A stretch of 64,000 bases of DNA from Thermoanaerobaculia bacterium (GCA_049678185.1 JBAUDS010000371.1:2466-66465), one strand, 5' to 3'. Shown: positions 9,906 through 26,717, counted from the first letter of the stretch. Translations and numbers: made by a program. The notes: generated by a model from the sequence alone, not told the origin.

Positions 9906-10208
9906 TTTCTAAAGTGCACACCCGCCGGCTTCGTCATCATCACCAGCCGCAAGCGGCTGCACTTCGCTCTGTCTTCGCAAATCCAATTATGAAGCATAAA
10001 GAGCTGTTCCGGCAGAGAGAAAATACCAAGATACCAGACTGGCGTCGGTTGGGATGATGGTGGTGGAAAGCCCACGCCTCCTGTGCGTTAGACTCTTCAG
10101 ACGGCGCGTTCTCGGAAGAATCGTTGTCATCTGCCGTGATTCTCGGGCATGACAGAGTTTCGCCTTTTGAGCCATTCCCACTATGAACGATCGGGGCGAG
10201 GGAGCTCG

Positions 10209-12634
10209 ATGGTGATGCGGACCTTTGGAGCCACTTTTCTGCTTGCCTCAATCGGGATCCTCTGTCACGGGTCCTCGGTTCCGATCTCGGCGGCCGAGCT
10301 TCCGGTCGTCAACGTCGGCATGGTCATCGATGGCCCGTGGGAAGGGAACCCATACGTCACCGAGATCACCCGCAATGAGATTGTCACTCTGACCGCGGGC
10401 GAGTTCGACATCCGCTTTCCCGACGACTACAACATCGAAAGCGACTGGACTCTCGAAGGGGCCATCGAAAACTTGAATCGGCTGCTGAAGAACCCCGGCG
10501 TCGACGTGGTCATTGCCTGGGGTGTCCTCGCCTCTCATGCGGTCGCCCGGATGGCCGAGCTCCCGAAACCGGTGATCGCACCAGTGATCCTCGATGTGGC
10601 GCTGCAGAGTGTCCCCTACCGGGACGGTGTCAGTGGGATGCACAATCTCAATTACGTAGCATTTCCCGACACCCTGGCAGACGATCTCCGGCGGTTCCAG
10701 AGGGTCGTCCCCTTCCAGAAGGTGACCATAATCTCGACCCGGCCGTTTCTCGAGGCCATCCCGGAGTTGTATGCCCAGACCGAGCGCTCTTTGGCGGGTC
10801 TCGACATCGACTTCGAGTACGTAGCAGTCGGATTCGACGTCGACGAGGCCCTGGAGGCCATCCCTGCCGATAGCGACGCCGTATTCATGTATCCCCAGTT
10901 CCAGCTCTCTCCAGAAGAGCGCTCTCGACTCATCGACGGGTTTATCGAGCGCCGACTCCCGAGCTTTACCGCCCTCGGTGGGCAGTTCGTCGAAGATGGC
11001 GTGCTGGCTGGTTTTGGGGCGGCTGACTTCTTCCCGCGAACTGCCCGTCGGATTGCGCTCAATTTGCAGAGGATCCTCCTCGGCGAAGAGGCCGGCTCGA
11101 TTCCGGTCGCGATCAGCCTGCGCGAAGAGCTGATCATCAACATGAAAACCGCTCGCGCCATAGGGGTCTCCCCCACCTACGAGGCGCTACTCGAGGCCAA
11201 GGTGCTCCACCCCTATGCGGTCGACGAGGTCCGCACCTTGACGCTGTCCGAGGCGGTCCATGAGGCGATCGCCGTCAATTTGGATCTGCTGGCTCGCGAG
11301 CGCTCGGTCGCCGCCGGGCAGGAGGACGTGCGGCGCGCAAGCTCGATCTTCTGGCCCCAGGTGGATATCGGTGCTCTGGGTCTGGTCATCGACGAGGATC
11401 GAGCCATCGCCAGCTTCGGCTCACAGCCGGAGCGCTCGCTGACCGGTTCGGTAGGTCTCACCCAGCTCCTCTTCTCGGACGATGCCCTGGCCAACAAATC
11501 GATTCAGACGAGCCTCCAGACCGGTCGGGAGTGGGACTTCGAAGTCCTGCGCCTGGACATCGCGGTCGAGGCGGGAGTCACCTATCTGAATCTGTTGCGG
11601 GCGCAGAGCCTGGAACAGGTCCAGCGCAACAACGTGGCACTCACCCGTTCCAATCTCGAGCTGGCAGAGGTGCGCCGGTCGATCGGCGCCGCCAATCCGG
11701 CGGAGGTCTTCCGCTGGGAGAGCCAGATCGCCACCGACCGCAAGGCCTTGGTGGAGGCAGAGGCCAGCGTTCAAGTGGCACAGATCGCCGTCAATCGGAT
11801 CCTCGATCGTCCCTTGGAAGAGCGTTTCCAGACCGAAGAGGTGGATCTCGAGAAGCCTTGGCGAGTCACCGGGGACCCACGCATCGGCGGCTACATTGAG
11901 ACACCAGCCCGTTTCCGGGCCTTTCAGGATTTCGCGGTCGAGGAGGGAATCGCAAACGCTCCGGAGCTCGAGATTCTGGCAGCGGCCCTCGCGGCTCGGG
12001 AGAGATCCCTGACCAACGCCAAACGCGCCTACTGGGCGCCGCTGATCGCCGCCGAGGCGTCGCTGGACGAGTTCCTATCGAAGAGCGGGGAAGGCACCGA
12101 GCCTCCAGGGCTGCCGGGTGGCGGTCTTTTCCCCACCCCGGACGACACCCTCTGGAGCGTCGGGCTGAGCGCCTCCCTGCCCCTTTTCACCGGTTTTGGG
12201 CCCGCAAGGCCGATCGGATCCAGGCAGAAGAAGGACTCGAGCGGTTACGGCTGGACTACGACGCCACCGCACAACGGATAGAGCAGCGGATCCGCTCGGG
12301 TATGGAGGTGGCTCGGGCCTCCCTAACGGGCATTGGACTGGCTCGCCAGGCTGCCGATGCCGCGGCCAAGAATCTGGAGCTGGTCACCGATGCCTACGCC
12401 CGTGGTGCGGTCTCCATCATCGATCTGCTGGACGCTCAGAACGCCGGTCTCAATGCCGAAGAGCTCGCGACAAATGCGACCTACGACTATCTCGTCGATC
12501 TGCTCGAAGTCGAGAGAGCCATCAGTAGTATCGAGCTCCTGGGCACGCCGGAGACGAGCGCGGCGTTCTTCGTGCGTCTGGAGAAGTATTTCCGGGAGCG
12601 AGGGCTTTCGCCCACGGAAGAACCGTCGGATTAA
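10209..12634 (+). pseudogene. Outer-membrane efflux protein (TolC-like OEP) carrying an N-terminal periplasmic ABC-substrate-binding-like domain (PF04392-like). Reading frame is broken by a 1-nt frameshift near 12190-12200.
   Basis: N-terminal ~330 aa resemble the ABC_sub_bind family (VVIAWGVLASHAV..., LIINMKTARAIGVSP). The C-terminal half is two TolC-like repeats. The frame 0 ORF ends at 12281 and the conserved OEP C-terminus (ARKADRIQAEEGLERLRLDYDAT...AYARGAVSIIDLLDAQ) continues in frame 2 through 12634. The shift sits at a TTTTGGG homopolymer. Confidence 0.7.
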
Positions 12635-12636
12635 GG

Positions 12637-13767
12637 ATGGCAGGGGAGGAACCGCGCATGAGAATCCTTGAGCCCAGAGGTCTGCTGATTGTTTCCCTGG
12701 CGATAACCGGCTTTCTTGCCTGCGGCCGCGAGATTCCCGAGGCCGAGCCGGTCCTGCGTCCGGTCCGCTACCAACGGGTGACGGAGGGGGGGCTCGATAC
12801 CATCCGCACCCTCGTCGGAGTGGCCAAGGCCGGAGTCGAGGCCGATTTGAGCTTTCGGGTCGGGGGCTCGGTCAGAGAGGTCAAGGTCGACCTCGGCGAT
12901 GCTGTGCGCAAGGGGGATGTGCTGGCCCGACTCGATGCCGTCGACTACGAGCTCCAGGTGGAGGAGGCCGAGGCCGGTCTGGCACAGGCCGGCGCCGCGC
13001 TCCGTAAGTCCGAGGCCGACTTCGATCGTACGCGCGCCCTTTATGAGAACAACAACGCCGCCAAGAGCGAACTGGACGCGGCCCGGGCCGCCGCCGAGTC
13101 GGCCCGGTCGCAGGTCGATGCCGCCAGCAAGCGGCTGGAGCTCGCCCGTCAGCAGCTGGCCTACACCGTGCTGCGGGCACCCACCGACGGGGCCATTGCC
13201 CTGACGGACATCGAGATCAACGAGAATGTCAAGGCTGGAGATCCGGTTTTCATGATGACCTCGGGATCGCTGGCCGAGGTGGAGTTCGCGGTACCGGAGA
13301 TCATGATCGCCGAAATCGAAGTCGGCTTCCCGGTGGCGGTTGCGCTCGATGCCCTACCCGGTCGGGAATTCCCAGCCGAGATCACCGAGGTCGGGGTCGC
13401 GGTCACCGGTGCCTCGGCCACCTTTGCGGCGACTGCCCGACTGTTGGAGGAGGTATCGGAGGTCAAGTCCGGCATGGCGGCCGAGGTGATCTTCCGCGTC
13501 GAAAGTGAGGACTCGGAAGGTAGCCTGACGGTGCCCTGGGTGGCGGTAGGTGAGGATCGGGATGGCCGCTTCGTCTTCGTGCTGCAGCCGGAGAGTGAGG
13601 GTGTCGGCACGGTACATCGGCAAACAGTTACCGTCGGCGCCTTCGGCCAGAGTATCGAGATCCTCGATGGCCTCGAGGCGGGCGACCTGGTGGTAACCGC
13701 CGGCACGCGGCGGCTTACCGATGGCATGCGCGTCAAGCTCGAAATCGAGACCGGAGGGGGCACGTGA
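12637..13767 (+). CDS. RND efflux periplasmic adaptor (membrane fusion protein, lipoprotein, LACG lipobox)
   Basis: AcrA/MdtA-like coiled-coil and beta-barrel architecture. Coupled to the downstream RND pump (overlap 13764-13767). Confidence 0.85.
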   Translation: MAGEEPRMRILEPRGLLIVSLAITGFLACGREIPEAEPVLRPVRYQRVTEGGLDTIRTLVGVAKAGVEADLSFRVGGSVREVKVDLGDAVRKGDVLARLDAVDYELQVEEAEAGLAQAGAALRKSEADFDRTRALYENNNAAKSELDAARAAAESARSQVDAASKRLELARQQLAYTVLRAPTDGAIALTDIEINENVKAGDPVFMMTSGSLAEVEFAVPEIMIAEIEVGFPVAVALDALPGREFPAEITEVGVAVTGASATFAATARLLEEVSEVKSGMAAEVIFRVESEDSEGSLTVPWVAVGEDRDGRFVFVLQPESEGVGTVHRQTVTVGAFGQSIEILDGLEAGDLVVTAGTRRLTDGMRVKLEIETGGGT

Positions 13768-16700
13768 ACCTCACCCGGCTGGCCATCGACAACAACCGGG
13801 TGACGACGGTCCTGCTCCTGGTCCTGATCATCGCCGGCCTTGCAGCCTGGTCCAAGATGCCCCAATCGGAGGATCCGGGATTCACCATACGCATCGCCAT
13901 GGTGATCACCTACTTTCCGGGGGCGAGTCCCGAACGGGTCGAGCAGCTGGTCACCGACAAGCTGGAGAAGGCCATCCAGGAGATGCCGGAGCTCGACTTC
14001 GTGCAGAGCGACTCGAAGCCCGGGGTATCGGTCATCTTCGTCACCATCAAGCAGCGCTACAAGGAGATGCGACCGATCTGGGACAACCTCCGTCGCAAGG
14101 TGGAGCGCGCTCGATCCGAGCTTCCGGATGGGATCATCGGGCCGATCGTCAACGACGAGTTCGGTGACGTCTTCGGCACCATCGTCAACCTCACCGGCGA
14201 CGGATACTCCTATGCGGAGCTCAAAGAGGTAGCCGACGAGGTCCGCGACGAGCTACTTCTCATCCCCGACGTCGCCAAGGTCGAGATCTACGGTGCCCAG
14301 GAGGAGCGGATCTTTGTCGAGTACAACAACGCCCGCCTGGCCGATCTGGGACTCTCCCCGCTCCAGCTCCGCGGCATCCTCGGGTCCCGCAACATCATCA
14401 ATCCGGGAGGCGAGGTGCGGACCGAGGACGAAGAGATCGTCCTCGAGCCCACCGGCAGCTTCGAGTCGGTACAGGATCTGAGGCGAACCCTGATCAGCAT
14501 ACCGGGAAGCGACGAGCTTCTCTATCTCGAGGACGTGGCCACGATCCGCCGGGGCTATGTCGACCCACCCTAGACCAAGATGCGCGCCACCGGCGAGCCG
14601 GGACTGGCGCTGGCGATTTCGCTGCGCGAGGGGGGAAACATCCTCACCCTGGGCGAGGAGGTCCGGGAGACCATCGCGCGGTTCCAGGCCAGTTATCCGA
14701 TCGGGATCGAGTTCGACTTCTCCGCCTTTCAAGCCGATGCCGTCAGAAAAAAGGTCGACGACTTTGTCGGCAACCTGATGCAGGCAATTCTGATCGTTCT
14801 GGTGGTGATGCTGGTGATTTTGGGAGTGCGGACCGGTCTGGTCGTGGCAACTCTGATCCCCATGGCCATCATCTCGGCCTTGTTCTTCATGTCGGTCTTC
14901 GACGTGGGGATCAACCAGATGTCGTTGGCGGCGTTGATCATTTCGCTGGGGCTGCTGGTGGACAACGCCATCGTCATGTCCGAGTCGATCATGGTCCAGA
15001 TGACCGAAGGCAAGCCCGCCGTGGAGGCGGCAGTCGACTCGGCGGCGGAGCTCCGTATGCCGCTGCTCACTTCATCGCTGACGACCATCGCAGCCTTTCT
15101 CCCGTTCTATCTGGCCAAGTCGGACACCGGTGAGTACGTGGCGCCCCTCTTTCAGGTGGTGACCATCACCCTGCTTTGTTCCTGGGTCCTCTCTCTCACC
15201 ATGATTCCCTTGCTCTGTGTGCTGTTCCTCAGGGTGAAGAAGGCCAAGCAAGAGGGCTTTGACACGCCTTTTTATCGGATGTACCGCAGGCTGCTGATGG
15301 CCGGACTGAGGCGCCGCTGGCTCACGGTCGCCGTGGTGGTCGTCATCTTCCTGGGCGTGATGCAGCTCGCCGGCTTGGTGCCGCAGATCTTCTTTCCGCC
15401 CAACGATCGTCCTACGCTGATGGTGGAGCTCTTCCTGCCCACCGGGACACCGCTGGCCAGAACCGAGCAGGTGGTACAGGAAGTGGAGGAGTTCATGGTG
15501 GAGAATCTCCTGCTCACAGCCGAGGAGACCGAAGAGGGCCGTGAAGGGGTCGTCAACTGGGCCGGCTACATTGGCGAAGGAGCGCCGCGGTTCATCCTCT
15601 CCTACGGCCCCGAGCAGGCGAGCCCCGAATACGCCATCCTGCTGGTCAATGCGACTTCCAGGGATTTTGTCGACGTGGCGATTGCCCGGCTGCGGGAGTT
15701 CTGCTCCCGATTCCCCGATCTCAAAGCCAAGATCGACCCCCTACCTCTTGGCCCACCCGCCGACAATCCGATCGAGGTCCGCATCTCGGGCCGCGAGCCG
15801 GACGAGGTCTTCCAGCTCGTAGACCGCGTCAAGGAGAAGCTGCTCCAGACTCCCGGTACCCGGGGTGTCGTCGACGACTGGGGTGCCCGCTCCAAGAAGC
15901 TCCTGATCCGCATCAACGAGGCGCGGGCCCAGCGGGCCGGAGTCTCCAACCAGGATGTCGCCATTTCGCTCCAGACCATTTTCTCGGGCTTTGACACCAC
16001 CGAGTACCGGGAAGGCGACAAGATCATCCCGGTGACCCTGCGCTCGGAACAGGCCAACCAGGTCGGGGCGATGGGCCGTGAATCGATCGCCCAACTCGGC
16101 AGCGTCAACGTCTTCTCCCAGGCCACCGGTGCCTCGGTACCCGCCGCCCAGGTGGTGGATGCCGAGCTGGTCTGGCAACCCGCCAAGATCTTGCGGCGCA
16201 ATCGGCTCAAGACGGTGACGGTGGAGTCGGATCTCGAGCCGGGCTACACCGCCGTCGAGATCAACCGGAGTGTGACGCCCTGGCTCGAAGAGGAGAGCAA
16301 GAGCTGGCCGCTGGGCTACTCCTGGGAGCTGGGGGGCGAAGAGGAGGAGGCGGCCAAGGCCAACGCCTCGATCGTGGAACAGCTACCTCTGGCCAGCCTG
16401 GTGATACTTCTTCTTCTCGTAACACAATTCAACTCGATCCGGCGGCCGCTCATCATCCTTATCACCATCCCTCTCGGTCTCATCGGCGTCGTCATTGGCC
16501 TGCTCGTCATGCGCTCCTACTTCGGCTTCATGACTTTTCTTGGAGTGATCTCCTTGGCCGGTATCGTCATCAACAACGCCATCGTGCTGTTGGACCGGAT
16601 CAAGATCGAAATCGAGCAGCATGGCCTGACGCCACAGTTCGCCATTTTGGAGGCCTCCCAGCGGCGGTTGCGACCGATCCTGTTGACCACGGTCACCACC

Positions 16701-16865
16701 CTGGGCGGACTGCTTCCCCTTTATCTCGGTGGGGGACCCATGTACCAACCGATGGCTGTAGCCATCATGTTCGGCCTGATCTTCTCCACCGTACTCACCC
16801 TCGGGGTGGTGCCGGTCCTCTACTCCCTCTTCTTCAAAGTGAGCTACAAGGATTTTCTCGTTTGA
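13764..16865 (+). pseudogene. RND (HAE1/AcrB-like) efflux pump, about 1030 aa, interrupted by an in-frame TAG at 14571-14573
   Basis: ORFs 13764..14573 and 14580..16865 are in the same frame and together align collinearly with AcrB (N-terminal TM1 and porter domain, ...RRGYVDPP*TKMRATGEPGLALAIS...). Only a single TAG codon separates them. Confidence 0.7.
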
Positions 16866-16895
16866 GTCCTTTGGGACTCTCGGCTGATCACTCCG

Positions 16896-16970
16896 GTTGA
16901 GGGCCAAAAAGCACCCTACACCGAAGTCCACAGCTTGGGCCTCGAAAGGCGAATCCCTATTCGATCCGCC
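16896..16970. repeat. Copy A of an approximately 75 bp imperfect direct repeat, about 80% identical to copy B
   Basis: ttgagggccaaaaagcaccctacaccgaagtccacagcttgggcctcgaaaggcgaatccctattcgatcc compared with the sequence at 21369. Confidence 0.7.
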
Positions 16971-17020
16971 ACCGCTGCTATTCTTCAGTCGAGGCCTGTG
17001 GCGAGATGAGGAGGTGCGAG

Positions 17021-17620
17021 ATGTTCGAGAGGATCCTGTTGGGTGTGGGGCGTCGAATGGTGCCGGTTCCCGAGTGTCTATTTCGGACGATGGTCCAGCG
17101 CGATGCGAGGAGGCTCGCCAAAAGGCCGGCCCTCGAGCCCGACGAAAGGCGCGTCCAGCACTTTGCGGTTACGGAGATCCCTCGCCGTCGCGAGGCGATC
17201 ACGCCTGAGGTTTTCGCCGCTGAGCTCGACCTGCCTCCTGATCAGGTGAGCCTGATCCTCGACAAGCTCGAACGGCGCCTGACCTTCCTCTGCCGCAGGG
17301 GAGGGGAGGACGTGGTCTGGGCCTACCCGGTGACAGCCGAGGAAACGCCTCACCAGGTCCGGATGGACGGAGGTGAAGCGTTCTCGGCCGCTTGAGCGGC
17401 CGACGCCGTGGCGACGCCCTTCGTGCAAGGGCAACTGTTGGACAAGGACCTGAGCTGCACAGTCGAGACCGAGTGCGCGATCAGCGGACGGTCCATCGTC
17501 TTCGAGCTCGAGAGTGACCTCGGCTATCGTGTCCGTCCTCCCGCCGAAAAGCCGGTGTTCTTCATTCCCATGATCGACCTACCCAACCTGGACGCGCCGT
17601 GCATCGTCGATGACTTCTGA
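17021..17620 (+). CDS. MerB-like (organomercurial lyase family) protein with an in-frame TGA at 17393-17395 at the position of catalytic Cys96. Candidate selenoprotein, about 199 aa with read-through.
   Basis: ORFs 17006..17395 and 17408..17620 share a frame and are separated only by TGA plus four sense codons. The collinear alignment to MerB places Sec, Asp and Cys at the MerB positions C96, D99 and C117. Start ATG at 17021 has AGGAGG 8 nt upstream. Confidence 0.55.
17393..17395 (+). other. In-frame UGA, putative selenocysteine recoding site
   Basis: Aligned with catalytic Cys96 of MerB. A GC-rich hairpin (cgacgcc-gu-ggcgacg) starts about 6 nt downstream. Confidence 0.45.
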
Positions 17621-17865
17621 ATGAAGAGTGTCTTCTTCTGGTCAGAAGAAGAGGCCCGCACACATCGCCGAGAGAACCCGGAGCCGAAAGGCATCTACCT
17701 CACCCTGCGGCAAGGTGCCATCGTGACCAAACCGATTCAGAGCGTCCTCTTCGGCTTTGCCCAATAGCATTGGTGCGTTGCTGAAGGGGTGTCAGAGGAT
17801 TCTCGGTCAGAGCGGAGCGTCAACTTGGTACACTTCCTCGACTTCCAGTTCAGTGCGAAGGAGCG

Positions 17866-19752
17866 ATGATGGTTGGACCTGCCCCTATGGGCTTTCTATG
17901 GCGGATGGTGGTCGGCGCCTTGCTTGCGCTTTGCCTCTGTTCTTCACCAGCTGCGCAACTGTTGTCAGCAGGGACGGGGGCACCGTCTGCCGAACGGGTT
18001 GCTATACGCCGTGTCGGAACAGTCGGCCAATACGTGGGTCTTTTTGGTTCATCCGTTTCGCCCGATGGCCGATACCTCGTTTTCACGGACTGGACGACTG
18101 GTGATCTGGCCGTCCGGGATCTCGTAACTGACGAGAATCGCCGCGTGACCAACAAAGGCCCTTTTCACAAGGTCGTTGAATGGGTGGAGTTCTTCATGCG
18201 GTTCTCCGGCGACGGGAAGCAGCTCGCGTACATCTGGGACAAGAACGGCTACGAGCTACGGGCCATCAACGTGGACGGCTCTGGCTCGCGCTTCATCTAT
18301 CGCGATGAACCCGAGCAAGGGGAGATGCTTCGCGCCTTCGACTGGTCCGCCGACGGGAAGTACGTTGCCGCCGTCGTCCCCAGGCCAGGTAGCCCGACAA
18401 CGGACAGCACACTTCAGATTGCGCTCGTTCACGTAGCTGATGGCTCGGTGCAGGGGTTGAAAGCCTTGAGCGGGCCGGTGCCGGATGAACAGAGAATGAG
18501 CTTCTCGCCGGATGGCCGCTTTTTGGCGTACGACTTCCCGGTGAATGGAAAGCTACAGAAGCGGGACATTTTCGTACTTCCTCTCGATGGCGGCGAGGAG
18601 ATATCTGGGGTTGCGCATCCGGGGAACGACCGTCTGCTCGACTGGACCCCGGATGGAAGCGCGCTTCTGTTTACCAGCGATCGGGCGGGTGCGCCCGATG
18701 CGTGGCTCCAGCCACTCGAGGACGGGAAACCGCAAGGCGTGGCTCAGAGAGTGAGGGGCAACCTGAGAGAAGACATCCGGCCGCTGGGGTTTGCGCGCAA
18801 CGGAGACTACTACTACGCCACTTCGGAGACTGGTCAACTCGAGGTCTATGCCGCGTCTCTGGACCTGGAAAAGAGCCTCGTGACGGAGTCGCCTGCACCA
18901 GTTCCACAGATTGCCAGTTCGAATCAGGGCCCCGATTGGTCCCCGGACGGAAAGTCTCTCGCCTACATCCGCAACGGCAACAGCATCGTCATCCGTCAAC
19001 TTGAGACCGGCATGGAGCGCTCCCTCACCCCAAAGGCACTGCAGAACATCTTCACGGTGGGATGGGGCGAACGCTATCTCCGCTGGTCACCGAACGGCCG
19101 GCACTTGCTCGCTCCGCAAAATCGAACCTTGTTTCTTGTCGACGTGAAGAGCGGCGAAGCTACTCCGGTGGTCACCGACAGGCGTTCGCGCTACGGGCGG
19201 TGGTCTCGGGACGGCGAGGAGGTCTTCTACGCGCGACAACTCGGACTGAACGATGCGACGGTCCAAATCGTGCGGTTGAATCTTGAGACGCAACAGAAAG
19301 AAGTGCTCTACACTTCCGAACTACCCGGCGAGAATCTCAACAGCCTCGAGGTTTCCCCAGACGGCCGGTGGCTGGCTTTCTCCGACGTGGCGCTGAACAA
19401 GACCACTGGCGACGACGAGACTGTCCTGATGGTGATGCCGGTGGACGGCGGCCGGCCGCGGTTGCTGCTCGAGGTACCAGTCTCGGAAACGGTAAAAGTG
19501 GTGGGCTGGACTCCGAACACACAGGAGATCCTGTTTGCACGGGATCCGAAGTTGGCAGCGAAGCCCTCGACCACGCTGTGGCGAATTGGGAACGACGGCG
19601 GAGAACCACGAAAGCTCGAACTGGGGTTAAACGTGCTGGGCAGCATTCGTTTCCATCCCGACGGCCGGCGCGTGGCTTTTGACTCAGGACAGCGTGGTGC
19701 TGAGATCTGGGTCATGGAAGATGTCCTGTCGCTTCTCAAAGCATCCGAGTGA
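17866..19752 (+). CDS. Secreted TolB-like / PD40 WD40-like beta-propeller repeat protein, 628 aa
   Basis: Repeated SPDG-type motifs (SPDGRYLVF, SADGKYVA, SPDGRFLAY, SPDGKSLAY, SPNGRHL, SPDGRWLAF, HPDGRRVAF). Signal peptide. Confidence 0.7.
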   Translation: MMVGPAPMGFLWRMVVGALLALCLCSSPAAQLLSAGTGAPSAERVAIRRVGTVGQYVGLFGSSVSPDGRYLVFTDWTTGDLAVRDLVTDENRRVTNKGPFHKVVEWVEFFMRFSGDGKQLAYIWDKNGYELRAINVDGSGSRFIYRDEPEQGEMLRAFDWSADGKYVAAVVPRPGSPTTDSTLQIALVHVADGSVQGLKALSGPVPDEQRMSFSPDGRFLAYDFPVNGKLQKRDIFVLPLDGGEEISGVAHPGNDRLLDWTPDGSALLFTSDRAGAPDAWLQPLEDGKPQGVAQRVRGNLREDIRPLGFARNGDYYYATSETGQLEVYAASLDLEKSLVTESPAPVPQIASSNQGPDWSPDGKSLAYIRNGNSIVIRQLETGMERSLTPKALQNIFTVGWGERYLRWSPNGRHLLAPQNRTLFLVDVKSGEATPVVTDRRSRYGRWSRDGEEVFYARQLGLNDATVQIVRLNLETQQKEVLYTSELPGENLNSLEVSPDGRWLAFSDVALNKTTGDDETVLMVMPVDGGRPRLLLEVPVSETVKVVGWTPNTQEILFARDPKLAAKPSTTLWRIGNDGGEPRKLELGLNVLGSIRFHPDGRRVAFDSGQRGAEIWVMEDVLSLLKASE

Positions 19753-19967
19753 CTTCCATCAGGCTCCGTTCGCTTTCCGCATCGCAAGTGGACAATCAGT
19801 ACCTCATCCCGGTAATGACCCGGTAAGCACGGCCTCTCAAACTGCAACAAACTCGGGGCAAGCTATCGCCACTGATCCTGAGTCAGTGGGTCGGCCCACT
19901 GAGAGACATCGGTCGCAGCTGCCCGCCAGCCAGGGGAACACGACAGTAGGTGCGGTCGAATCGACGG

Positions 19968-20098
19968 CCGTGCACCGATTACCCTGGGCGGGTTGTTACC
20001 CCTCTATTTCGGTGGGGGACCCATGTACCAACCGATGGCTGTAGCCATCATGTTCGGCCCGATCTTCTCCACCGCGCTCACCCTCGGGGTGCTACGAA
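19968..20098 (+). repeat. Roughly 130 bp duplicated fragment of the 3' end of the RND pump gene (about 93% identical to 16690-16815)
   Basis: Translates in frame as LGGLLPLYFGGGPMYQPMAVAIMFGPIFSTALTLGV, matching the RND C-terminus LGGLLPLYLGGGPMYQPMAVAIMFGLIFSTVLTLGV. No start codon. Confidence 0.8.
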
Positions 20099-20416
20099 GT
20101 GGATCCGCTCTTGTGACGGCGTGAGCTTTCCTTTCCTGGCATCCACTCCACCGCCCAAGGTGCCCAATCCCGCTGCCTCAGGCCGAGGCCAAGAAAAGCG
20201 GATTCCTACACGGCCATTGCCCCATTACCTGACCGACGCTCTGGCCGGTCTGGCGGTCTCTGCCTCCGGTCTGGCAGTTCTTTTCCTCGGGCTCCAGCTC
20301 GAAATCTTGAAACAGATCCGAATCTGGAGCCATGTCGTATCCTCCAGCATATTCACGCGTTGAACCTGGTCCGGCCGCAAGAGCTGGGTCACAAGATTGA
20401 AGAAAGGAGCCAGTAA

Positions 20417-21109
20417 ATGAGCAGAGGAATTGTATTCGGTGTAGCTATGGCCGTGTTGGCACTTGCGGTGCCGGCACAGGCCGATATCGCAGTGAAATTT
20501 GTCGGTGAGCTGACAGCAGGTAATCTAAGCCCAGAAATATCGGCGGCTGTGACCGACTTCTTTAGCAGCAATCCACAAAACCAGGCAGATTTCGCTTGCT
20601 ATGAGGGTGATCTGGTACACCTCGAGACGCGAAACGTCGTCGGGGTTGGCGTAGACTGCCTTCGACCCTCGACGCTGGTGGACACCACCTCTGGAATTCC
20701 GACACCAGTTATCACTCAACCCAACTTCAATACCCTTCCGCTGGTCAACACAGCAAACGTAAGTGTGGCGATCGAGGCGGTGACATTCTTCTTCTTCCCA
20801 GGTGGCCACATTGTGACTACCGGCTTCACCACAGTGCGACCGTTCTTCGTTGATGTAGGCGACGGTGACGGTACCACGGTCGAAACCACTGTGACCCATA
20901 TGACCGGCTCGTTTCCCGGCGCCGGCCCGACCGTGATCGAGGCCAGTGGGAGGTTTTCCAATTTGGAGGACACAGCCAGAGTTCGCCTGTCCGGCACAGT
21001 CGATCTGTCCCAATTTGCGCCGCCAGGCAGTACGCGAATCTTCTTCAGTTGCCTGTTCGTTATCGAGAATGGCAAGGGAAAGGGCCAGGGAGGCCCAGCC
21101 AACAACTAG
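20417..21109 (+). CDS. Hypothetical secreted protein, 230 aa, in a lower-GC (about 53%) segment
   Basis: Signal peptide MSRGIVFGVAMAVLALAVPAQA. Composition distinct from flanking DNA. Confidence 0.5.
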   Translation: MSRGIVFGVAMAVLALAVPAQADIAVKFVGELTAGNLSPEISAAVTDFFSSNPQNQADFACYEGDLVHLETRNVVGVGVDCLRPSTLVDTTSGIPTPVITQPNFNTLPLVNTANVSVAIEAVTFFFFPGGHIVTTGFTTVRPFFVDVGDGDGTTVETTVTHMTGSFPGAGPTVIEASGRFSNLEDTARVRLSGTVDLSQFAPPGSTRIFFSCLFVIENGKGKGQGGPANN

Positions 21110-21368
21110 ATCAGACGACACCCGCGGGTCGCCCCGGGCAGAGCCGGGGCGACCTTGTCTTACCGAACAGGGACCAGCGAGTTTTCCTGCGGCAAGGAGA
21201 ATCGTCTCGTCTGGGTGAAGCGAGCAAGGGGGTGACTCGAACCGTCGAGTACGACCCCCTACCAGCTCATCGCCAAAATGAGCAGCTCACGGCCCAAAAA
21301 GCGCGACCCATCGCCAAATTGACATCGGCTCCAGGGGTAGGAGCTGCCCCGCCGGGCTGACCACTCGA

Positions 21369-21443
21369 CTTGAAGGCCTCCAAGCAACCCACACCGAAGT
21401 GCACAGCTTGGGCCTTGAAGAGCGATTTCCTGTTCGATTCTCG
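21369..21443. repeat. Copy B of the approximately 75 bp direct repeat
   Basis: ttgaaggcctccaagcaacccacaccgaagtgcacagcttgggccttgaagagcgatttcctgttcgattc. Confidence 0.7.
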
Positions 21444-21576
21444 GCACCTTTCCCAGATTCAGACGCTGCGATTGAAACGTTTTCGCGCGCTGATCGTCTG
21501 GTAATTAGTAGCGAGGGACTACTCGTCCAAGACGACGCGCTGATCGACTTGTTCATGGGTCATTCCGGAGGTCACA

Positions 21577-23346
21577 ATGATGCCGCATTGCTGGTCACGT
21601 CAACCCGCCACAAGCAATTTGAACGGACACTCTGCCCCGGCTTCCACCCGCGCTGCTGCGCAGACCTTTGCCGGTCTCGGGCCGGCTCGATTCCGGCAAA
21701 GCGGATCAACATGGAGAGCCGCATCACTTGTGCTGCTCGCCCTGATCACAACTGCCCCGCTCCAAGCCGAAAACGAGGAGCAACTCGTCCCGCGGGCGCT
21801 CCTTGTCGAGGATGCGCGGCAGCTTCTGGATACCCTCGAGGAAGCCCACCCAGATCCGTACCTGGCCGGTGGTGGTCGAATCGCCTTTCATCGGCGCTTC
21901 CACAAGATGCTGGCCGCGATCCCCGCACAGGGCCTCCCGACCGACGAGTACTTTCGGCTCCTGCAACCGTTCGTCGCCTCGATCGGAGACTCCCACACTG
22001 GGATTCGTATGCAGAGCGGATCTCTGGACCCGCTATTCCTTCCTCTGGCGATGAGGTCCGTCGAGCACGAGTTGGTAGTAGAAAAGGTTGCAGACTCGAA
22101 GCTCGAGTCCCTACTGGGTGCGCGATTGGTGAGTATCGAAGGCGTCTCGCTGCCGGAGCTGTTGAGCCGCCAAAGCGCGACTCGAGGAATGGAGAACCTT
22201 TACGGCCACCTGGTACTTCTCAACCTTCGTACCCTGGCTACCCGCCAGGGTCTGAAACAGCTGCTTCCGGAGTGGCGAGGCGGCGACACGATCCGGGTCG
22301 AACTGAGCAGGCGTACGGGCGACTTGCTGCCGACCGAGCTCAGACTGTTGGATGAGCCGCCCGTTGTCTGGGAGACCTTGCCGACCCGTGTCCACATGCC
22401 TTCCACCGCGGCCTCGGATGTGACCTTCGCCTTCCTCGACGCCGAGCGATCGACGGCGTTGCTCGTCATCTCCAACCTCATGCGGTACCGAGAGGCGTGC
22501 GAGTTGTGGTTCGCCGAAGGGCTTGCGCCGGCCGAAGAGATGACCAAGGAGGCGTACGAGCACTTTCACGGCACACCTGTGCCCGACGACCGGGAGGAGC
22601 TACTTGCCGGGATCCCGTCGGCAACCGAGGCTATCGCCGACCTCATGCGTCAGATGGCAGCCGCCGGCACCCGCAATCTGATCGTCGATCTCAGGGGCAA
22701 CACCGGTGGCAACTCGGCCCTGCGGGAGATCCTCGTTTACCTGCTCTATGGCGACACCGCGATGCACTCGCTCGACAACGGCTACCAGATCGTCAAGCTA
22801 TCGAGGCTCCTGTTCGAACAGTACGATGGGTACTCTCTCGAGCAGGCGAACCAAGGCCAGCCGTTCCAGTTGCTGTCCACTGACTATGATTTTCGTGATG
22901 AGGTCTCTTACCGGCAGCCGCATGTCGCCGGTGAGGATTCTGGCAGCCCGTACCTGGCAGGCTCGCCGTCGTTCTGGAACGTGTACCAGACCGAGGAGTT
23001 TCACGAGGCGGGGCGGGGGCCGAGCCAGGTGCTGGTTTTGAGCTCTCCCTCTACTTTCAGCTCAGGCTTCAATGTCTTGACGGGGCTCCACGCGATGGGC
23101 GCGCGCGTCGTCGGCACGCCATCGGCTCAGCCAGGCAATAACTTCGGTGACGTGCTCCAATTTCAACTCAAGAACACCGGCCTCGAGGCATTCGTCTCGC
23201 ACAAACGCAACATCACCTTCCCGGACGACCCTGAAAAGGGCCGCTGCCTGCAACCCCACTACCCAATCACTCTGGAGAAGTTCGCAATCTATGATTTCGA
23301 CCCCAACGCCGAGATTCTCCTGGCTCTGGAGATCCTGAGCGGATGA
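21577..23346 (+). CDS. S41-family peptidase (C-terminal processing / tail-specific protease-like)
   Basis: IVDLRGNTGGNSALREIL motif typical of S41. GGAGG Shine-Dalgarno 7 nt upstream of the ATG. The N-terminal leader is unusually long before the hydrophobic segment. Confidence 0.6.
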   Translation: MMPHCWSRQPATSNLNGHSAPASTRAAAQTFAGLGPARFRQSGSTWRAASLVLLALITTAPLQAENEEQLVPRALLVEDARQLLDTLEEAHPDPYLAGGGRIAFHRRFHKMLAAIPAQGLPTDEYFRLLQPFVASIGDSHTGIRMQSGSLDPLFLPLAMRSVEHELVVEKVADSKLESLLGARLVSIEGVSLPELLSRQSATRGMENLYGHLVLLNLRTLATRQGLKQLLPEWRGGDTIRVELSRRTGDLLPTELRLLDEPPVVWETLPTRVHMPSTAASDVTFAFLDAERSTALLVISNLMRYREACELWFAEGLAPAEEMTKEAYEHFHGTPVPDDREELLAGIPSATEAIADLMRQMAAAGTRNLIVDLRGNTGGNSALREILVYLLYGDTAMHSLDNGYQIVKLSRLLFEQYDGYSLEQANQGQPFQLLSTDYDFRDEVSYRQPHVAGEDSGSPYLAGSPSFWNVYQTEEFHEAGRGPSQVLVLSSPSTFSSGFNVLTGLHAMGARVVGTPSAQPGNNFGDVLQFQLKNTGLEAFVSHKRNITFPDDPEKGRCLQPHYPITLEKFAIYDFDPNAEILLALEILSG

Positions 23347-23454
23347 CAGCGGGAGGTGGCGGGGACTATGTCTGGGTCCGGTTCCCCGACGATTGGCAAG
23401 AGCAGGTGCCCGCCGAGTGCCGGGGTCCCTCGTCTTCGCAGCGCTCGTGCGGTG

Positions 23455-23937
23455 CTACTGCCCGAAGCGATTGTCTACCAGTGGTGAGACAGCCCCTTTC
23501 GGGACATGGCAAGTGATGCAGATGTAACGCGCACCCACCACCTGGTCGCCCACGGTCTCGGGGGCGAGACGCAGGTCGGTCAGGTGGCTTTGAGGAATCG
23601 GCGTCGGCTCCCCCTCCACTTTCTCCGCTCCCGTCTCCGGCTCGTGGCAGTCCAGGCAAAGGTGCTCCTGGCGCGTTATGGGCAAGAAGTCGGCAATGCC
23701 GTGGGGAATGACGGGTGGCGAGCCGTCGAAGAACCGGGGCAAGACCGGCTGATCCCCTGGGTCACCACCGGCGGCGGGCATCGGGTCGGGGCTCGGCACG
23801 TCGAAGACGCTGGTCTTGCTGAGCCCGATCTCGGTATCGGGCGTCGACGGCGATGTCTTCTCCTCGGCCGCCAGGTAGGTGACGGGCGCAAGGACCAAGA
23901 GGGCAAGGACTAGGCTTTGTAGATTTTGACCGCGCAT
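23455..23937 (-). CDS. napB: Periplasmic nitrate reductase diheme cytochrome c subunit NapB
   Basis: Two CxxCH motifs (CLDCH, CITCH). Signal peptide from the internal Met ([17 protein letters not shown]). Immediately downstream of napA. Confidence 0.8.
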
Positions 23938-26717
23938 TTTTTGAAATCCGTTTGCTTGGAAATGGGGCAGGTGGCGTCCAGCGTCACCTTGTTGATGAAG
24001 ACTCCTTCGTCGAACCACGGCACAAAGACCAAGCCCCGGGGAACCCGGTCACGGCCATCGGTCTCGACCCGCGCCTGGATCTTGCCGCGACGGGACTCGA
24101 TCCAGGCCAGGTCGTTTCGTCGCAGTGAACGGGCCTCGGCGTCGCGTGGGTGGATGAAGATCTGGGCGGTTGGCATCGCCTGGTGGAGCTGGGGCACCCG
24201 GCGGGTCATCGAGCCCGAATGCCAGTGTTCGAGAACCCGGCCGGTACACAGCCACAGGTCGTAGACCTCATCGGGGCTCTCGGGCGGAGCGGCGTAGGGT
24301 CGGTAGAAGATCTTCGCCCGGCCGGCCAACGAGGTCGTCTCGGACTCGGTGACACCGTTCAGATCACCCTTGGGCAGGCTCTTCATCGCCGGGCCGTAGA
24401 AGTCGAAGGCGCTGCCTTTCTTGGCGTAGGGATCGTAGCGCTCATTGAACCGCCATGGGGTCTCCTTGCCGTCGACCACCGGCCAACGCAAACCCCTGAC
24501 GTCGTCTCGGTAATAGACGTCGAAGTCGGCCAGATCGTGGGCATGGTCACGACCAAACAGCACGTACTCCTGGAAGAGGGCCTTTTCGGGAAACCAATCG
24601 AGGCCGCCGTGTTCCACGGTGTGGTTCTCATGACCTTTGGCCACCGGGTCGGGCCAGGCCATCTGGCGGCTTGTCGGGGTGTCAAAAAGCACCTCGTAGA
24701 GAGAGGTCTCGGGCGAGTAGCCGAGTTCTTTGGCCTCCACGAGGACATCGGGTAGAAAACCGTCTTCGAAGCCTGCCGCGGCGAGACCCGGAATCGGCCC
24801 GCGGCCCCACACCTCCTCGAGCTTGAAGCGCTTGGAGAACTCCAGGATTTGCCAGACATCGCTGCGGGCGTCGCCGGGGGGTGGCACCTGCTCGCGCCAG
24901 GCCTGGGTGCGACGCTCCGAGTTGCCGTAGGCCCCCCACTTCTCGAAAATCATCGCCGAGGGCAAGATGAGGTCGGCTACCTTGCACGACAGGGTCGGAT
25001 AGACATCCGAGACCACGATGAAGTTGTCTTTCTCCCGAGCGGCTTCAATCCAGTGGTTGGCGTTGGCGGTGGCCTGGAAGGGATTGGTCACCTGCACCCA
25101 CAGCCATTTGAGCGAACCGTCCTCGAGGTCCCGCATCATCTTGGTGATGTGACTCCCTACCTTGGGGTTGAGGGTCTTGGCCGGGAGCTTCCACACCTCT
25201 TCGCAGCGCTCGCGGTGCTTGGGATTGGCCACCACCATGTCGGCCGGCAGGCGGTGGGCAAAGGTGCCCACCTCCCGTGCCGTGCCGCAGGCCGACGGTT
25301 GACCGGTGAGAGAGAAGGCGCCGTTGCCCGGCTTGGCCTGCTTGCCGGTCAAGAGATGGACCATGTAGGCCTGCTCGTTGACCCAGGTGCCGCGGGTGTG
25401 CTGGTTGAAACCCATGGTCCAGAAGGAGACCATCTTGCGGCCGCGGTTGGCGTAGTAGTCGGCCAGCTGTCGGAGCTTGGCCTTGTACTCCTCCAGCGGC
25501 TCGTCCGGATCGCCTTTGGAGACCTCGGCTACGAAGTCCAGGGTGTAGGGCTCGAGAGCCCTTTTGAAGTCCTCGAAACTGATCAGCCAGTGCTTGCCGG
25601 CGGTCGCGGCGTTGGCCTGCGGCACGCGGTGGGTTTGACTCGGATCTTTGCCCTGGGCGATGGCCTCCTCGCGGGTGAGCGTCACCTGTCGCTCTCGGTC
25701 CTGGGTTGGCTTTTCGCTGTCGAAGGCGTAGGCGTCGGTGGACCGCATGCCGAAGCCGATGTCGTTGGGTCCGGTGGCAAAAACACAGTGCTTGTCGATG
25801 AACTCCTTGTCGACAGCGCCGCGGGCGACGATCTCGCGGGCGATGTAGTTCAAGATGGCGAGATCGGTCTGGGGCTTGAAGACGATCTCGTGGTCGGAGA
25901 GATCCGAGGAGCGATTGTGGAAGGTGGTGAGGTTGACCACCCGATAGTCGGGGTCGGCGAGACGCTTGTCGATCACCCGCGCCCACAACATCGGGTGCAT
26001 CTCCGCCATGTTGGAGCCCCACAGCACCACCGTGTCGGTGAGCTCGATATCGTCGTAGCAGCCCGCCGGCTCGTCGATGCCAAAGGTCTGGATAAAGGCG
26101 GCGACCGCCGAGGCCATACAGTGACGTGCATTCGGATCGATGTTGTTCGAGCGCCAGCCGGCCTTGACCAGCTTCACGGCGGCGTAACCTTCCTGGACGG
26201 TGTACTGACCCGAGCCCATGATCCCGACCCCGGTGGGCCCCAGCTCGCCGTGGACACGCTTGAACTGCCGCTCCATCTCGTCGAAGGCCTGCTCCCAGCT
26301 GACGGGGACGAAGTCGCCTCGCTTCTCGAACTTGCCTTCCTTCATCCGCATCAACGGCCGCGTCAGTCGATCTTCACCGTAGAGAATCTGGGCGTTGGCG
26401 TAACCTTTGACACAGAGCAATCCGCGGTTGACCGTGTTCTCGCGGTCGCCCTGGATGGCCACGACCTTTCCCTCGTGGGTGGCGATGCGGATGCCGCAGC
26501 CAACGCCGCAAAAGCGACACACCCCCTTGTCCCAACGCCAGTCGTCCTCCTGTCCGTAGGCGGCCACCGGCAGTCCTGCCGTTGCTGCCGCAGCGGCGGC
26601 AACGCTGGCCTTGATGAAGTCGCGTCGCGACAGCCCTGAGATTCCATTCATCGAATTTGCTCTCCTACTCGGTATCCACTCCGGTAGCTTCCAACTCTTC
26701 GAAACGATGCTCGACAA
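23910..26717 (-). CDS. napA: Periplasmic nitrate reductase catalytic subunit NapA (molybdopterin, 4Fe-4S, Tat signal)
   Basis: Twin-arginine [16 protein letters not shown] cluster motif. Near full-length collinear similarity to NapA. Confidence 0.95.

Follow-up and report, generated by a model that had tools for sequence, protein, structure and literature searches.

How can unrelated genes accumulate beside an efflux operon, in a region which contains no mobility genes? This question is raised by a stretch of 64 kb (the window) in a MAG from the Thermoanaerobaculia (Acidobacteriota), an uncultured bacterium. An OEP-MFP-RND operon (10149–16865) is followed there by an islet of four genes, all in one orientation: MerB-like, PD40, 230-aa secreted protein and S41 peptidase. 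The islet also has a second copy of the 3' end of the RND gene and a repeated spacer. The features which we will discuss are the following, in positions of the window; L056 is the contig of a relative without the islet.

13764–16865, + strand: RND transporter gene (AcrB/CzcA-type; Pfam ACR_tran, E 8e-122)
16698–16808, + strand: D1a, the duplicated 111 nt within the intact RND gene, codons for TLGGLLPLYLGGGPMYQPMAVAIMFGLIFSTVLTLGV
16809–16881, + strand: RND tail and flank, with 19 codons, the stop (16863–16865) and 16 nt of conserved flank which contain a 6-bp hairpin (16864–16879)
16882–16965, + strand: D2a, 84-nt spacer unit, the first islet sequence relative to L056; it ends at the start of the MerB module
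16968–17779, + strand: MerB-like module, gene at 17006–17767 (Pfam MerB, E 6e-14)
17866–19752, + strand: PD40 beta-propeller gene, secreted product (Pfam PD40)
19753–19980, no strand: spacer of 228 nt from PD40 to D1b; its last 18 nt are patchily similar to RND just upstream of D1a
19981–20091, + strand: D1b, orphaned RND 3' fragment with sharp edges
20092–21354, + strand: p230 segment of 1263 nt, which stands in for the 73-nt tail in copy b
21355–21438, + strand: D2b, second copy of the 84-nt spacer unit
21536–23346, + strand: S41 peptidase module, a foreign-gene relic (21536–21596) plus the S41 gene (21577–23346; Pfam Peptidase_S41)
23347–23446, no strand: right border zone of the islet, where homology with L056 resumes
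23455–26717, − strand: napB (23455–23937) and napA (23910–26717), with their Pfam domains

Two pairs of repeats

The RND gene is the last one of an operon conserved in 37 loci, 12 from genomes and 25 from metagenomes. It is the left flank of the region and would be its homology anchor; the 600 nt downstream of it are unrelated in most of 11 relatives. The hairpin that follows its stop codon shows compensatory changes between its two arms in L034 c1 (alignments A2/A3). The gene has an in-frame TAG at 14571–14573, where relatives have Glu (GAA/GAG). The part of the gene found again in the islet is the conserved TM12 region of the AcrB-type pump. In D1a the reading frame is intact and runs on into the conserved RND tail.

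The first pair of repeats, D1, has 111 nt with 91.9% identity (16698–16808 and 19981–20091; blastn E 2e-41), including an exact run of 51 nt. A patchy extension of D1b to position 19963 brings it to about 129 nt. A reading made from the sequence only had described a near-identical copy of 130 bp: it is indeed a copy of the 3' end of the adjacent gene, but length and identity were overstated. The second pair, D2, has 84 nt with 79.8% identity (16882–16965 and 21355–21438; blastn E 6e-16 within the window) and a weak gapped extension which reaches 16991/21465. These are the direct repeats of 75 bp and about 80% identity that had been noted before: the pair is real, although longer, and its first coordinates (16896–16970 and 21369–21443) were about 14 nt off. 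Each pair has exactly two copies in the window, and D1 and D2 are collinear, with the same order and orientation in both. Since they are collinear, the two pairs are parts of one duplicated block, which consists of the 3' end of RND and the spacer that follows it. Copy b lacks the 73-nt gene tail and has in its place 1263 nt with the gene of a small secreted protein. The 84-nt repeats do not mark the limits of an element, and the block in copy b would later have been split by the 1263-nt insertion. The earlier proposal of a segment which arrived or was rearranged by recombination is maintained: it is accessory DNA without a recombinase of its own.

The two copies of D1 differ with dS 0.19 and dN 0.05, a dN/dS of 0.27 which rests on 9 differences (Fisher P 0.06). 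This dS is near the divergence of the non-coding D2, 0.24; taken as a whole, D1 has diverged much less than D2 (binomial P 4e-4). These comparisons would favour an allelic origin of the two gene ends. Two changes in D1b, Leu-to-Phe and Leu-to-Pro, are derived with respect to all relatives, as polarised in alignment A3. D1b has 92% identity with the resident D1a, and 86% at most with any relative. The one observation which points to D2 as the native flank of the RND gene is its coupling to D1, and its homologs are confined to this population; the RND flanks of relatives contain nothing significantly similar to D2a.

Extent of the islet and sources of its genes

The contig L056, with about 89% nucleotide identity, is the only empty site that we have found, in a short metagenome contig. 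In this contig about 100 nt separate the RND stop from the convergent napB/napA. Its positions 1–207 match window positions 16675–16881 with 89.4% identity and the homology stops exactly at 16881, so that 16809–16881, which is absent from copy b, is the last sequence common to both. Homology starts again somewhere from about 23421 to 23447, immediately ahead of the napB stop. NapB and NapA are 86.5% and 97.6% identical in amino acids. The spacer of about 100 nt belongs to L056 itself, thus the contig is not a chimera of window-like pieces. Given this junction, about 6.5 kb of accessory DNA, from 16882 to about 23420 and including the S41 peptidase, would form the islet, a wider segment than first noted. 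The convergent napB/napA form the right flank. An ancestral order RND-[repeat]-S41, which the sequence-only reading had put forward for comparison, is not the one found in this empty site.

The islet has a mild compositional dip. Positions 16896–21443 have 59.7% GC, and only 2.7% of equal-sized windows reach a value as low; the contrast is with a window mean of 63.2% and not with the 65% assumed before. The lowest 1-kb windows are found at 19.8–21.2 kb. The dip is due to two genes, PD40 and the 230-aa gene, plus the spacers. The reference GC3 of the 26 other genes of the window is 0.788 ± 0.034: PD40 (0.695, z −2.7) and the 230-aa gene (0.615, z −5.0, the most atypical of the window) are outliers, while the MerB-like (0.772) and S41 (0.746) genes are ordinary.

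The gene content noted before is borne out by Pfam: a MerB fold, a PD40 beta-propeller, a 230-aa protein with no Pfam match and an S41 peptidase. The MerB module starts 3 nt past the end of D2a and has 90.5% nucleotide identity with L060 over exactly 16968–17779, in an unrelated context; its homologs in L058, L059 and L061 have unrelated contexts too. The gene carries in-frame TGA codons at 17393 and 17618. The PD40 product had been called TolB-like: it is a propeller but not TolB, whose model gives 94 bits against a cut-off of 343. Its homologs, with 68–69% amino acid identity, are also found in unrelated contexts. The p230 segment has its gene at 20417–21109, with its own RBS and a palindrome/hairpin at 21127–21154; a search of 443 kb of related loci gave no relative of it. 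On the right the segment ends at the point which corresponds to the break of L056 (16881|16882); this might indicate a preferred site. The S41 module keeps the last 14 codons or so of a different upstream gene, as seen in the closest relative, L027, whose homology begins at 21537. The true start of the S41 gene is probably further downstream than 21577, and its homologs in relatives also have unrelated contexts. The cargo is of mosaic origin, made of single-gene modules. In about 35 other relatives whose RND flank is sequenced, no gene of the window cargo is found beside RND.

As the sequence-only reading had stated, there is no integrase or transposase in the segment: a Pfam scan which covered the islet genes and a further 30 large ORFs of the window (35+ in all) gave no recombinase domain, and the interval has no prophage or conjugation genes. 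No tRNA was found either. We also searched 16866–23460 for attC-like sites with the consensus R'' RYYYAAC ... R' GTTRRRY at 55–150 nt and found 0 on either strand, against 0.8 expected by chance in this consensus test.

Orphaned gene ends in relatives

Two other relatives carry orphaned RND 3' ends, each beside different cargo. In L034 the RND gene is followed by a GSDH/CHRD gene, in the opposite orientation to the window cargo, and then by an orphan RND tail; the repeat has 130 nt with 80% identity. In L057, a short metagenome contig with a scaffold gap, a FadL-type gene precedes the orphan 3' end. The left edges of the three orphans differ: in window-equivalent coordinates they are 16666, 16698 and 16786. 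We found no terminal sequence common to the window and L034 cargo.

Over 96 aligned positions (alignment A3), the L034 orphan shows about 4 differences from the L056 allele and about 16, or 17%, from the tail of its own gene. It is near the allele of another lineage and far from its own tail, therefore the divergence predates the event. The 3' third of the intact RND gene in L034 itself appears to be a mosaic: among the few genomes compared it switches from window-like to L011-like at about 16380–16830, with 30 versus 15 informative sites in 16530–16829 (best breakpoint P 1e-4, uncorrected).

Origin of the islet

Our preferred explanation, to which we would give about an even chance, is an integrase-free hotspot of horizontal gene transfer in the interval which separates the 3' end of the RND operon from the nap operon that converges on it, where about 6.5 kb would have accumulated as single-gene modules. 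A related strain would have supplied DNA which, with RND as its anchor, pushed aside the old gene end with a new one and added cargo. We infer the following donor allele, pathway of recombination and sequence of events. The ancestor may have had the order RND-tail-D2-...-S41-napBA. DNA of a related strain, with RND 3' end-D2-MerB-PD40, would then have entered by homologous recombination within the RND gene; the far end of this DNA may have been fixed by illegitimate joining, or a circularised fragment may have entered by a single crossover. The pump gene would gain a new 3' end and cargo, and the resident end (D1b-tail-D2b) would be pushed downstream as an orphan. The 1263-nt p230 segment would have replaced the 73-nt tail of the orphan at a later stage. 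We found no genome with either the donor arrangement (RND-D2-MerB-PD40) or the recipient arrangement (RND-D2-S41).

The duplication might also have arisen in situ, without a donor allele. Tandem duplication is the commonest spontaneous rearrangement in bacteria; one of about 3.3 kb (16698–19980), or a similar intragenomic rearrangement, could have left a second copy, later degraded and in part replaced by p230 and S41. The closeness of D1b to D1a and its two derived non-synonymous changes, expected of a decaying fragment, are in its favour. However D2b is followed by no trace of a second MerB/PD40 copy, the low divergence of D1 and its synonymous bias are unlike a lifelong free drift of D1b, and a duplication cannot give the L034 orphan, so that we consider it unlikely. 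The polarity might also be reversed: L056 could be a deletion derivative which lost 6.5 kb, in which case the window arrangement would be ancestral in the clade and the islet a decaying old neighbourhood. A single short contig represents the empty site, and its own spacer indicates that more than a simple gain or loss separates L056 and the window. Nevertheless each cargo gene has a different context in its nearest relatives, two of them are compositional outliers, the islet holds fragments orphaned from two genes, RND (its 3' end) and gene X (its tail), and the cargo is found beside RND in none of the about 35 other relatives; we see only a slight probability for such a loss.

Direct repeats, one of them within the 3' end of a target gene, give the classic picture of attL/attR. 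A recombinase encoded elsewhere might target the RND 3' end or the hairpin after its stop and serially insert small integrase-less elements, leaving att-like repeats. The same end of the gene has received insertions in three lineages, 16881|16882 is a break point twice, independently, and the cargo genes of the window are single and have the same orientation. Such cassettes are quite improbable: there is no integrase in the islet or in the whole window, no attC-like sites, variable orphan edges, no terminal sequence shared with the reversed L034 cargo, S41 and MerB brought arbitrary pieces of their flanks with them, and D2 is not found elsewhere in the loci and collections scanned. As a dispersed intergenic repeat, REP- or MITE-like and close to D1b by coincidence, D2 would be short, intergenic and 80% conserved as observed, and the search of its own genome covered the 64-kb window. 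But the two copies in 64 kb, with no third one, are always coupled to D1 and collinear with it. There are none in 443 kb of related loci, and scans of JGI metagenomes and viral contigs with exact-core patterns gave 0 matches. The two copies share no common fold (z-scores −1.9 to +0.9 on three of four strand folds), their ends have no inverted repeat and there is no Rfam match. The idea of a REP-like family, raised from the sequence only, is thus very improbable. Finally, the 51-nt exact repeat might have misled assembly or binning: the Logan contigs of at least 8 runs all break at window position 20030, within the exact run. Yet three separate MAG assemblies (L001, L002 at 99.8%, and L004) read through D1b and D2b, and since they cross the junctions the structure of the islet is not an assembly artefact. 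Moreover a read can span the exact run together with the mismatches that flank it, the RND frame passes intact from D1a into the conserved tail and nine further similar places are on record; an artefact is hardly credible.

A transfer hotspot without integrase, the explanation that we prefer, has known parallels. [quoted passage not shown] 2017, PMC5635113). The region resembles them: conserved genes enclose it, almost every relative has a different content there, L056 shows an empty state, the islet is without integrase, transposase or tRNA, the flanking core gene appears mosaic, and the cargo consists of unrelated accessory genes, some of them compositionally atypical. Their model is a double homologous recombination, one event in each flank, without any scar, whereas here one end would be non-homologous, or a single crossover, and an orphaned gene end is left. 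The lineage of the islet is known from MAGs alone.

[quoted passage not shown] 2017, PMC5361080). At rhs, cdiA and T6SS effector loci, displacement affects the C-terminal (3') ends (PMC5361080; Jackson et al. 2009, PMC2935791, cited therein). The likeness lies in the recurrent presence (D1b, L034 c2 and L057) of orphaned 3' ends behind an intact copy of the gene which they match, and in incoming DNA which would be anchored by a conserved gene part and bring a new 3' end plus downstream genes. Unlike those loci, the islet has no polymorphic toxin tip or immunity gene: the cargo is MerB-like, PD40, S41 and, in L034, GSDH/CHRD. The displaced part corresponds to the last, conserved transmembrane segments of an efflux pump, and both ends encode essentially the same protein. 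The toxin/immunity diversification which drives rhs/cdiA/T6SS loci is absent, so the orphan would be a by-product.

Islands inserted by an integrase in the 3' end of a gene, or their integrase-less derivatives (cis-mobilisable elements), also have direct repeats, one in the intact target, which bracket foreign genes; the islet differs from them by its lack of integrase, by repeat edges which vary among independent events and by the absence of conserved element ends. Integron cassette arrays and CALIN are similar in their single-gene modules with one orientation and no recombinase nearby, but here there are no attC-type sites and the module borders hold arbitrary pieces of neighbour genes. Unlike REP or MITE-like repeats, D2 is neither many-copied in the data scanned nor palindromic, and has no terminal inverted repeats.

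The region is a common kind of genome scar, an ordinary feature and not a new mobile element. The D1 and D2 repeats have no function of their own, but recombination between their copies could mediate the loss of MerB-PD40.

The repeated end of the RND gene

The RND gene (13764-16865, forward strand), which codes for an AcrB/CzcA-type transporter and closes an OEP-MFP-RND operon, is followed by a group of accessory genes. Two pairs of direct repeats lie in its last part and downstream of it.

Direct repeats, copy a and copy b
D1: 16698-16808 (within the last part of the RND gene) and 19981-20091; 111 nt, 91.9% identity, blastn E 2e-41
D2: 16882-16965 and 21355-21438 (spacer); 84 nt, 79.8% identity, blastn E 6e-16

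In the 64 kb window blastn finds two copies of each repeat and no more. Copies a and b keep the same order and orientation: in copy a the gap between D1 and D2 is 73 nt, formed by the last 19 RND codons, the stop codon and 16 nt with a small hairpin, D2a starting 17 nt past the stop codon; in copy b the gap is 1263 nt (20092-21354) and carries a strong hairpin and the gene of p230, a secreted protein, which has a ribosome-binding site of its own. This collinearity led us to reject two separate repeat families. The simplest description is a single duplicated block of at least 268 nt, the RND 3' end plus its downstream spacer, whose copy b was interrupted later. The translated frame, read directly, shows no extension of the RND reading frame upstream of D1b, and a scan for promoters and terminators gave no signal above chance.

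Immediately 3' of the RND stop codon there is a 6-bp hairpin, GAGTCC-TTTG-GGACTC (16864-16879). It is retained in relatives with both arms changed, for example ATTCC...GGAAT in copy c1 of locus L034 (alignments A2 and A3, which include L056 and L034). Just past it, at 16881|16882, the conserved RND flank runs out. D2 itself has no match in Rfam and its two copies share no fold, so that a structured RNA was discarded. It was also considered as the native flank of relatives: the MAFFT alignment A2 hinted at a likeness to the L034 flank, but shuffling gave P values of 0.05-0.99.

The sequence-only reading had described a low-GC islet at 16896-21443, bounded by 75 bp repeats and containing a near-identical 130 bp copy of the RND end. 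Both pairs of copies exist, but D2 is 84 nt long with coordinates shifted by about 14 nt, and the RND copy has 111 nt at 92%; it reaches about 129 nt only with a patchy, gapped extension of 18 nt. The depression in GC is real but modest: 59.7% in that segment against a window mean of 63.2%, within the lowest 2.7% of equal-sized windows. It is carried by the PD40 beta-propeller gene (GC3 0.695, z -2.7), p230 (GC3 0.615, z -5.0) and the spacers, while the MerB-like and S41 peptidase genes have a typical GC3. We agree with the gene identities proposed and with the lack of an integrase or transposase: such a domain is absent from the genes of the islet and from 30 further large ORFs in the window. 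No tRNA was found.

An assembly artefact is extremely improbable. A contig of GCA_049679045.1 (L001, a Thermoanaerobaculia MAG of the Acidobacteriota) is 100% identical to the window over 13000-24000, and the D1b and D2b junctions are read through in two other MAG assemblies (L002, 99.8% identity, and L004). In at least eight sequencing runs the Logan contigs (L003, L005-L010, L023) start at 20030, within 51 nt that are exactly alike in D1a and D1b, which is how a k=31 assembler behaves at a true repeat; in population data this break can serve as a practical marker. Look-ups of p230 and S41 gave matches solely from the same population, with the arrangement unchanged. Exact-protein matches to the PD40 and RND ORFs were none, owing to start-codon or pseudogene calls.

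The site in related genomes

Scanning metagenomes with the C-terminal region of RND gave 25 related loci. One of them, L056, has the RND end joined directly to the genes of the right flank, napB and napA.

Locus L056 compared with the window
L056 1-207: RND 3' end, window 16675-16881; 89.4% nt identity
L056 about 208-312: own spacer of about 100 nt, no window match
L056 313-1153: convergent napB and napA, window 23447-24287; 89.2% nt identity (NapB 86.5% aa, NapA 97.6% aa)

Homology with L056 ends exactly at 16881|16882, the left end of D2a, and returns between about 23421 and 23447, past the S41 stop codon. The spacer of L056 was compared with the sequence that follows S41, and its similarity is not significant (P 0.09). 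The window has about 6.5 kb more than L056: the MerB-like gene, PD40, the RND fragment, p230, D2b and the S41 peptidase. Since S41 belongs to this excess, the arrangement RND-[repeat]-S41, which had been proposed as ancestral, finds no support. The earlier suggestion of insertion or rearrangement by recombination is partly right: the segment is accessory DNA built by recombination, with no recombinase of its own, but its extent and its ancestral state were wrong; the repeats appear to be a product of insertion and not the ends of an element. The RND relatives in the genome collection (58-91% aa) have no synteny outside the operon, so the ancestral state is not obtainable from them.

None of the cargo genes is found downstream of RND in about 35 relatives with sequence there, and the first 600 nt past RND are mutually unrelated in most relatives compared. 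The interval after the operon is therefore a variable spot across the clade.

Orphaned RND ends are found in two other loci. The same architecture, with other cargo, is seen in L034 (RND 89% aa): downstream of an intact RND gene comes a secreted GSDH/CHRD gene in the reverse orientation, and then a further copy of the tail and flank of RND, 130 nt long and 80% identical to the first. Over 96 aligned positions in alignment A3, this orphan has about 4 differences from the L056 allele and about 16 from the tail of its own gene, which indicates that the divergence of the copies predates the event. The L034 gene would then have gained a foreign 3' end, with its old end displaced downstream. At informative sites most of this gene resembles the window, and the part at about 16380-16830 resembles L011; the sites in 16530-16829 divide 30 vs 15, with an uncorrected P of 1e-4 for the best breakpoint. 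In L057, the third case, a FadL-type outer-membrane gene and a 300-nt spacer are followed by an RND 3' end with a sharp start at the position corresponding to window 16666. No two of the three orphans share a left edge; in window equivalents these edges lie at 16666, 16698 and 16786.

In the window, D1a and D1b have five synonymous and four non-synonymous differences (dS 0.19, dN 0.05, dN/dS 0.27). Their dS is close to the corrected divergence of the non-coding D2 pair (0.24), their amino-acid divergence is about four times lower, and over its full length D1 has diverged far less than D2 (P 4e-4). With such small numbers (Fisher P 0.06), this pattern fits alleles that diverged as working genes in separate lineages, and fits less well a copy drifting freely in situ. 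Polarised against relatives, both D1 copies have derived changes; those of D1b include Leu-to-Pro and Leu-to-Phe, consistent with some decay after the event.

A peculiarity of the otherwise intact RND gene is an in-frame TAG at 14571-14573, where relatives have Glu (GAA/GAG). The TAG is also present in the matching NCBI contig, in which RND has no protein listed. A recent nonsense mutation is the probable explanation, and the efflux operon beside the islet may therefore be inactive.

The cargo genes

The closest homolog of the MerB-like gene, in L060, has 90.5% nt identity and matches the window over exactly 16968-17779, from 3 nt past the end of D2a to 12 nt past the MerB stop. There its neighbours are a HAD hydrolase gene on one side and other small genes on the other, and neither RND nor PD40 is nearby; in three more relatives the context is different again. 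Homologs of PD40 (68-69% aa) and S41 (65-78% aa) also have unrelated neighbourhoods, and none of the contexts of S41, PD40 and MerB homologs has a donor-type or recipient-type arrangement. In the closest S41 relative, L027, homology starts at window position 21537 and includes the last 14 codons or so of a different upstream gene, of which only a relic is left in the window. Judged from these matches, the cargo is evidently a mosaic of single-gene modules.

The p230 gene (20417-21109) codes for 230 amino acids with a signal peptide and no match in Pfam or NCBIfam; its GC3 is the most atypical of the window. At least 24 contigs of the window's population code for the identical protein. A 48-nt stretch (20169-20216), which lies after the orphan RND fragment and before p230, resembles an intergenic sequence of L060 (1053-1100; 79%, E 2e-5 against 443 kb). 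It lies about 830 nt upstream of MerB in L060 and 2.4 kb downstream of it in the window; it may be a trace of a donor locus common with L060.

Peptidase family S41 takes in the tricorn protease core. The PD40 protein (17866-19752) has precomputed Pfam matches to Tricorn_N and Tricorn_2nd, and the S41 peptidase (21577-23346) is 1.8 kb away. This closeness is probably fortuitous, since PD40 and S41 homologs are not neighbours in any relative examined.

The MerB-fold gene (17006-17767) has two in-frame TGA codons, at 17393-17395 and 17618-17620, which we take to be the positions of the MerB catalytic cysteines Cys96 and Cys159. Both are kept in four relatives (L058, L059, L060 and L061; 78-90% nt), each followed on its 3' side by a hairpin whose nucleotide sequence does not vary. 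In the second hairpin there is a 9-bp stem and a GGUC loop 10-11 nt past the UGA, like bacterial SECIS elements. SaoL is a known MerB-like selenoprotein with one Sec, whereas here two TGA are in frame. Scored against SaoL the protein reaches 41 bits (cut-off 140), and against MerB 35 bits (cut-off 200); with values so far below the cut-offs, it looks like a separate two-Sec family and not SaoL.

Origin and meaning of the islet

The islet may be a transfer hotspot without integrase, in which the RND gene serves as homology anchor for DNA from related strains; we give this reading an even chance. Such DNA would have integrated through homology in the conserved RND gene, its other end being joined illegitimately, or else a circularised fragment would have entered through a single crossover. 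The incoming piece would have brought a new RND 3' end, the spacer D2a, the MerB-like gene and PD40. The 3' end and spacer already in place (D1b ... D2b) would have been pushed downstream, and this orphan split later by the p230 segment; S41 and the relic of its former neighbour would be an older acquisition at the same spot. Donor, pathway and order of events are all what we infer. Hotspots of horizontal transfer without mobile elements, which diversify by recombination at flanking core genes, have been described (PMC5635113), and the islet matches them. It also matches the published cases of sequential displacement in which orphaned 3' ends are left behind.

A tandem duplication in situ followed by decay is unlikely: it is disfavoured by the divergence pattern of D1 and D2, and no second remnant of MerB or PD40 is present. 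We give little credit to a site-specific system acting in trans. It would account for the recurrence of the orphans and for the coincidence of two break points at 16881|16882, but the orphan edges vary, the module borders are arbitrary, and neither a recombinase nor attC-like sites were found. A narrower form of this idea has a smaller chance still: the RND end and its post-stop hairpin would be a specific docking site, with its break point at 16881|16882, where cassettes lacking an integrase are inserted serially by a recombinase encoded elsewhere; D2 would be the cassette end, and the system would be distinct from integrons.

The opposite polarity, with L056 as a derived state produced by deletion, is about as doubtful as a system acting in trans; the empty site is known from one short contig, L056, but a deletion fits poorly with a mosaic cargo which is partly atypical in composition. 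That D2 is a dispersed repeat, as had been offered for the 75 bp unit, is very improbable. It has no copy in 443 kb of related loci and no fold common to its two copies; a core-pattern scan found none in JGI metagenomes and none in viral contigs, a weak result as the window population is absent from both collections.

On the homology-anchor reading, the islet adds another example to a known type of genome scar and is of low general interest. It gives a well-bounded case, in an uncultured lineage of Acidobacteriota, of the entry of accessory genes without mobile-element machinery: the conserved end of an operon would act as homology anchor, and the old gene end, once displaced, would stay as a datable scar. 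For annotation, repeat-bounded islets of this type should not be called mobile elements, and exact gene-fragment repeats of 50 nt split k-mer assemblies at predictable points. The MerB-fold cargo gene, with its two predicted Sec codons, is biologically more notable than the scar itself.
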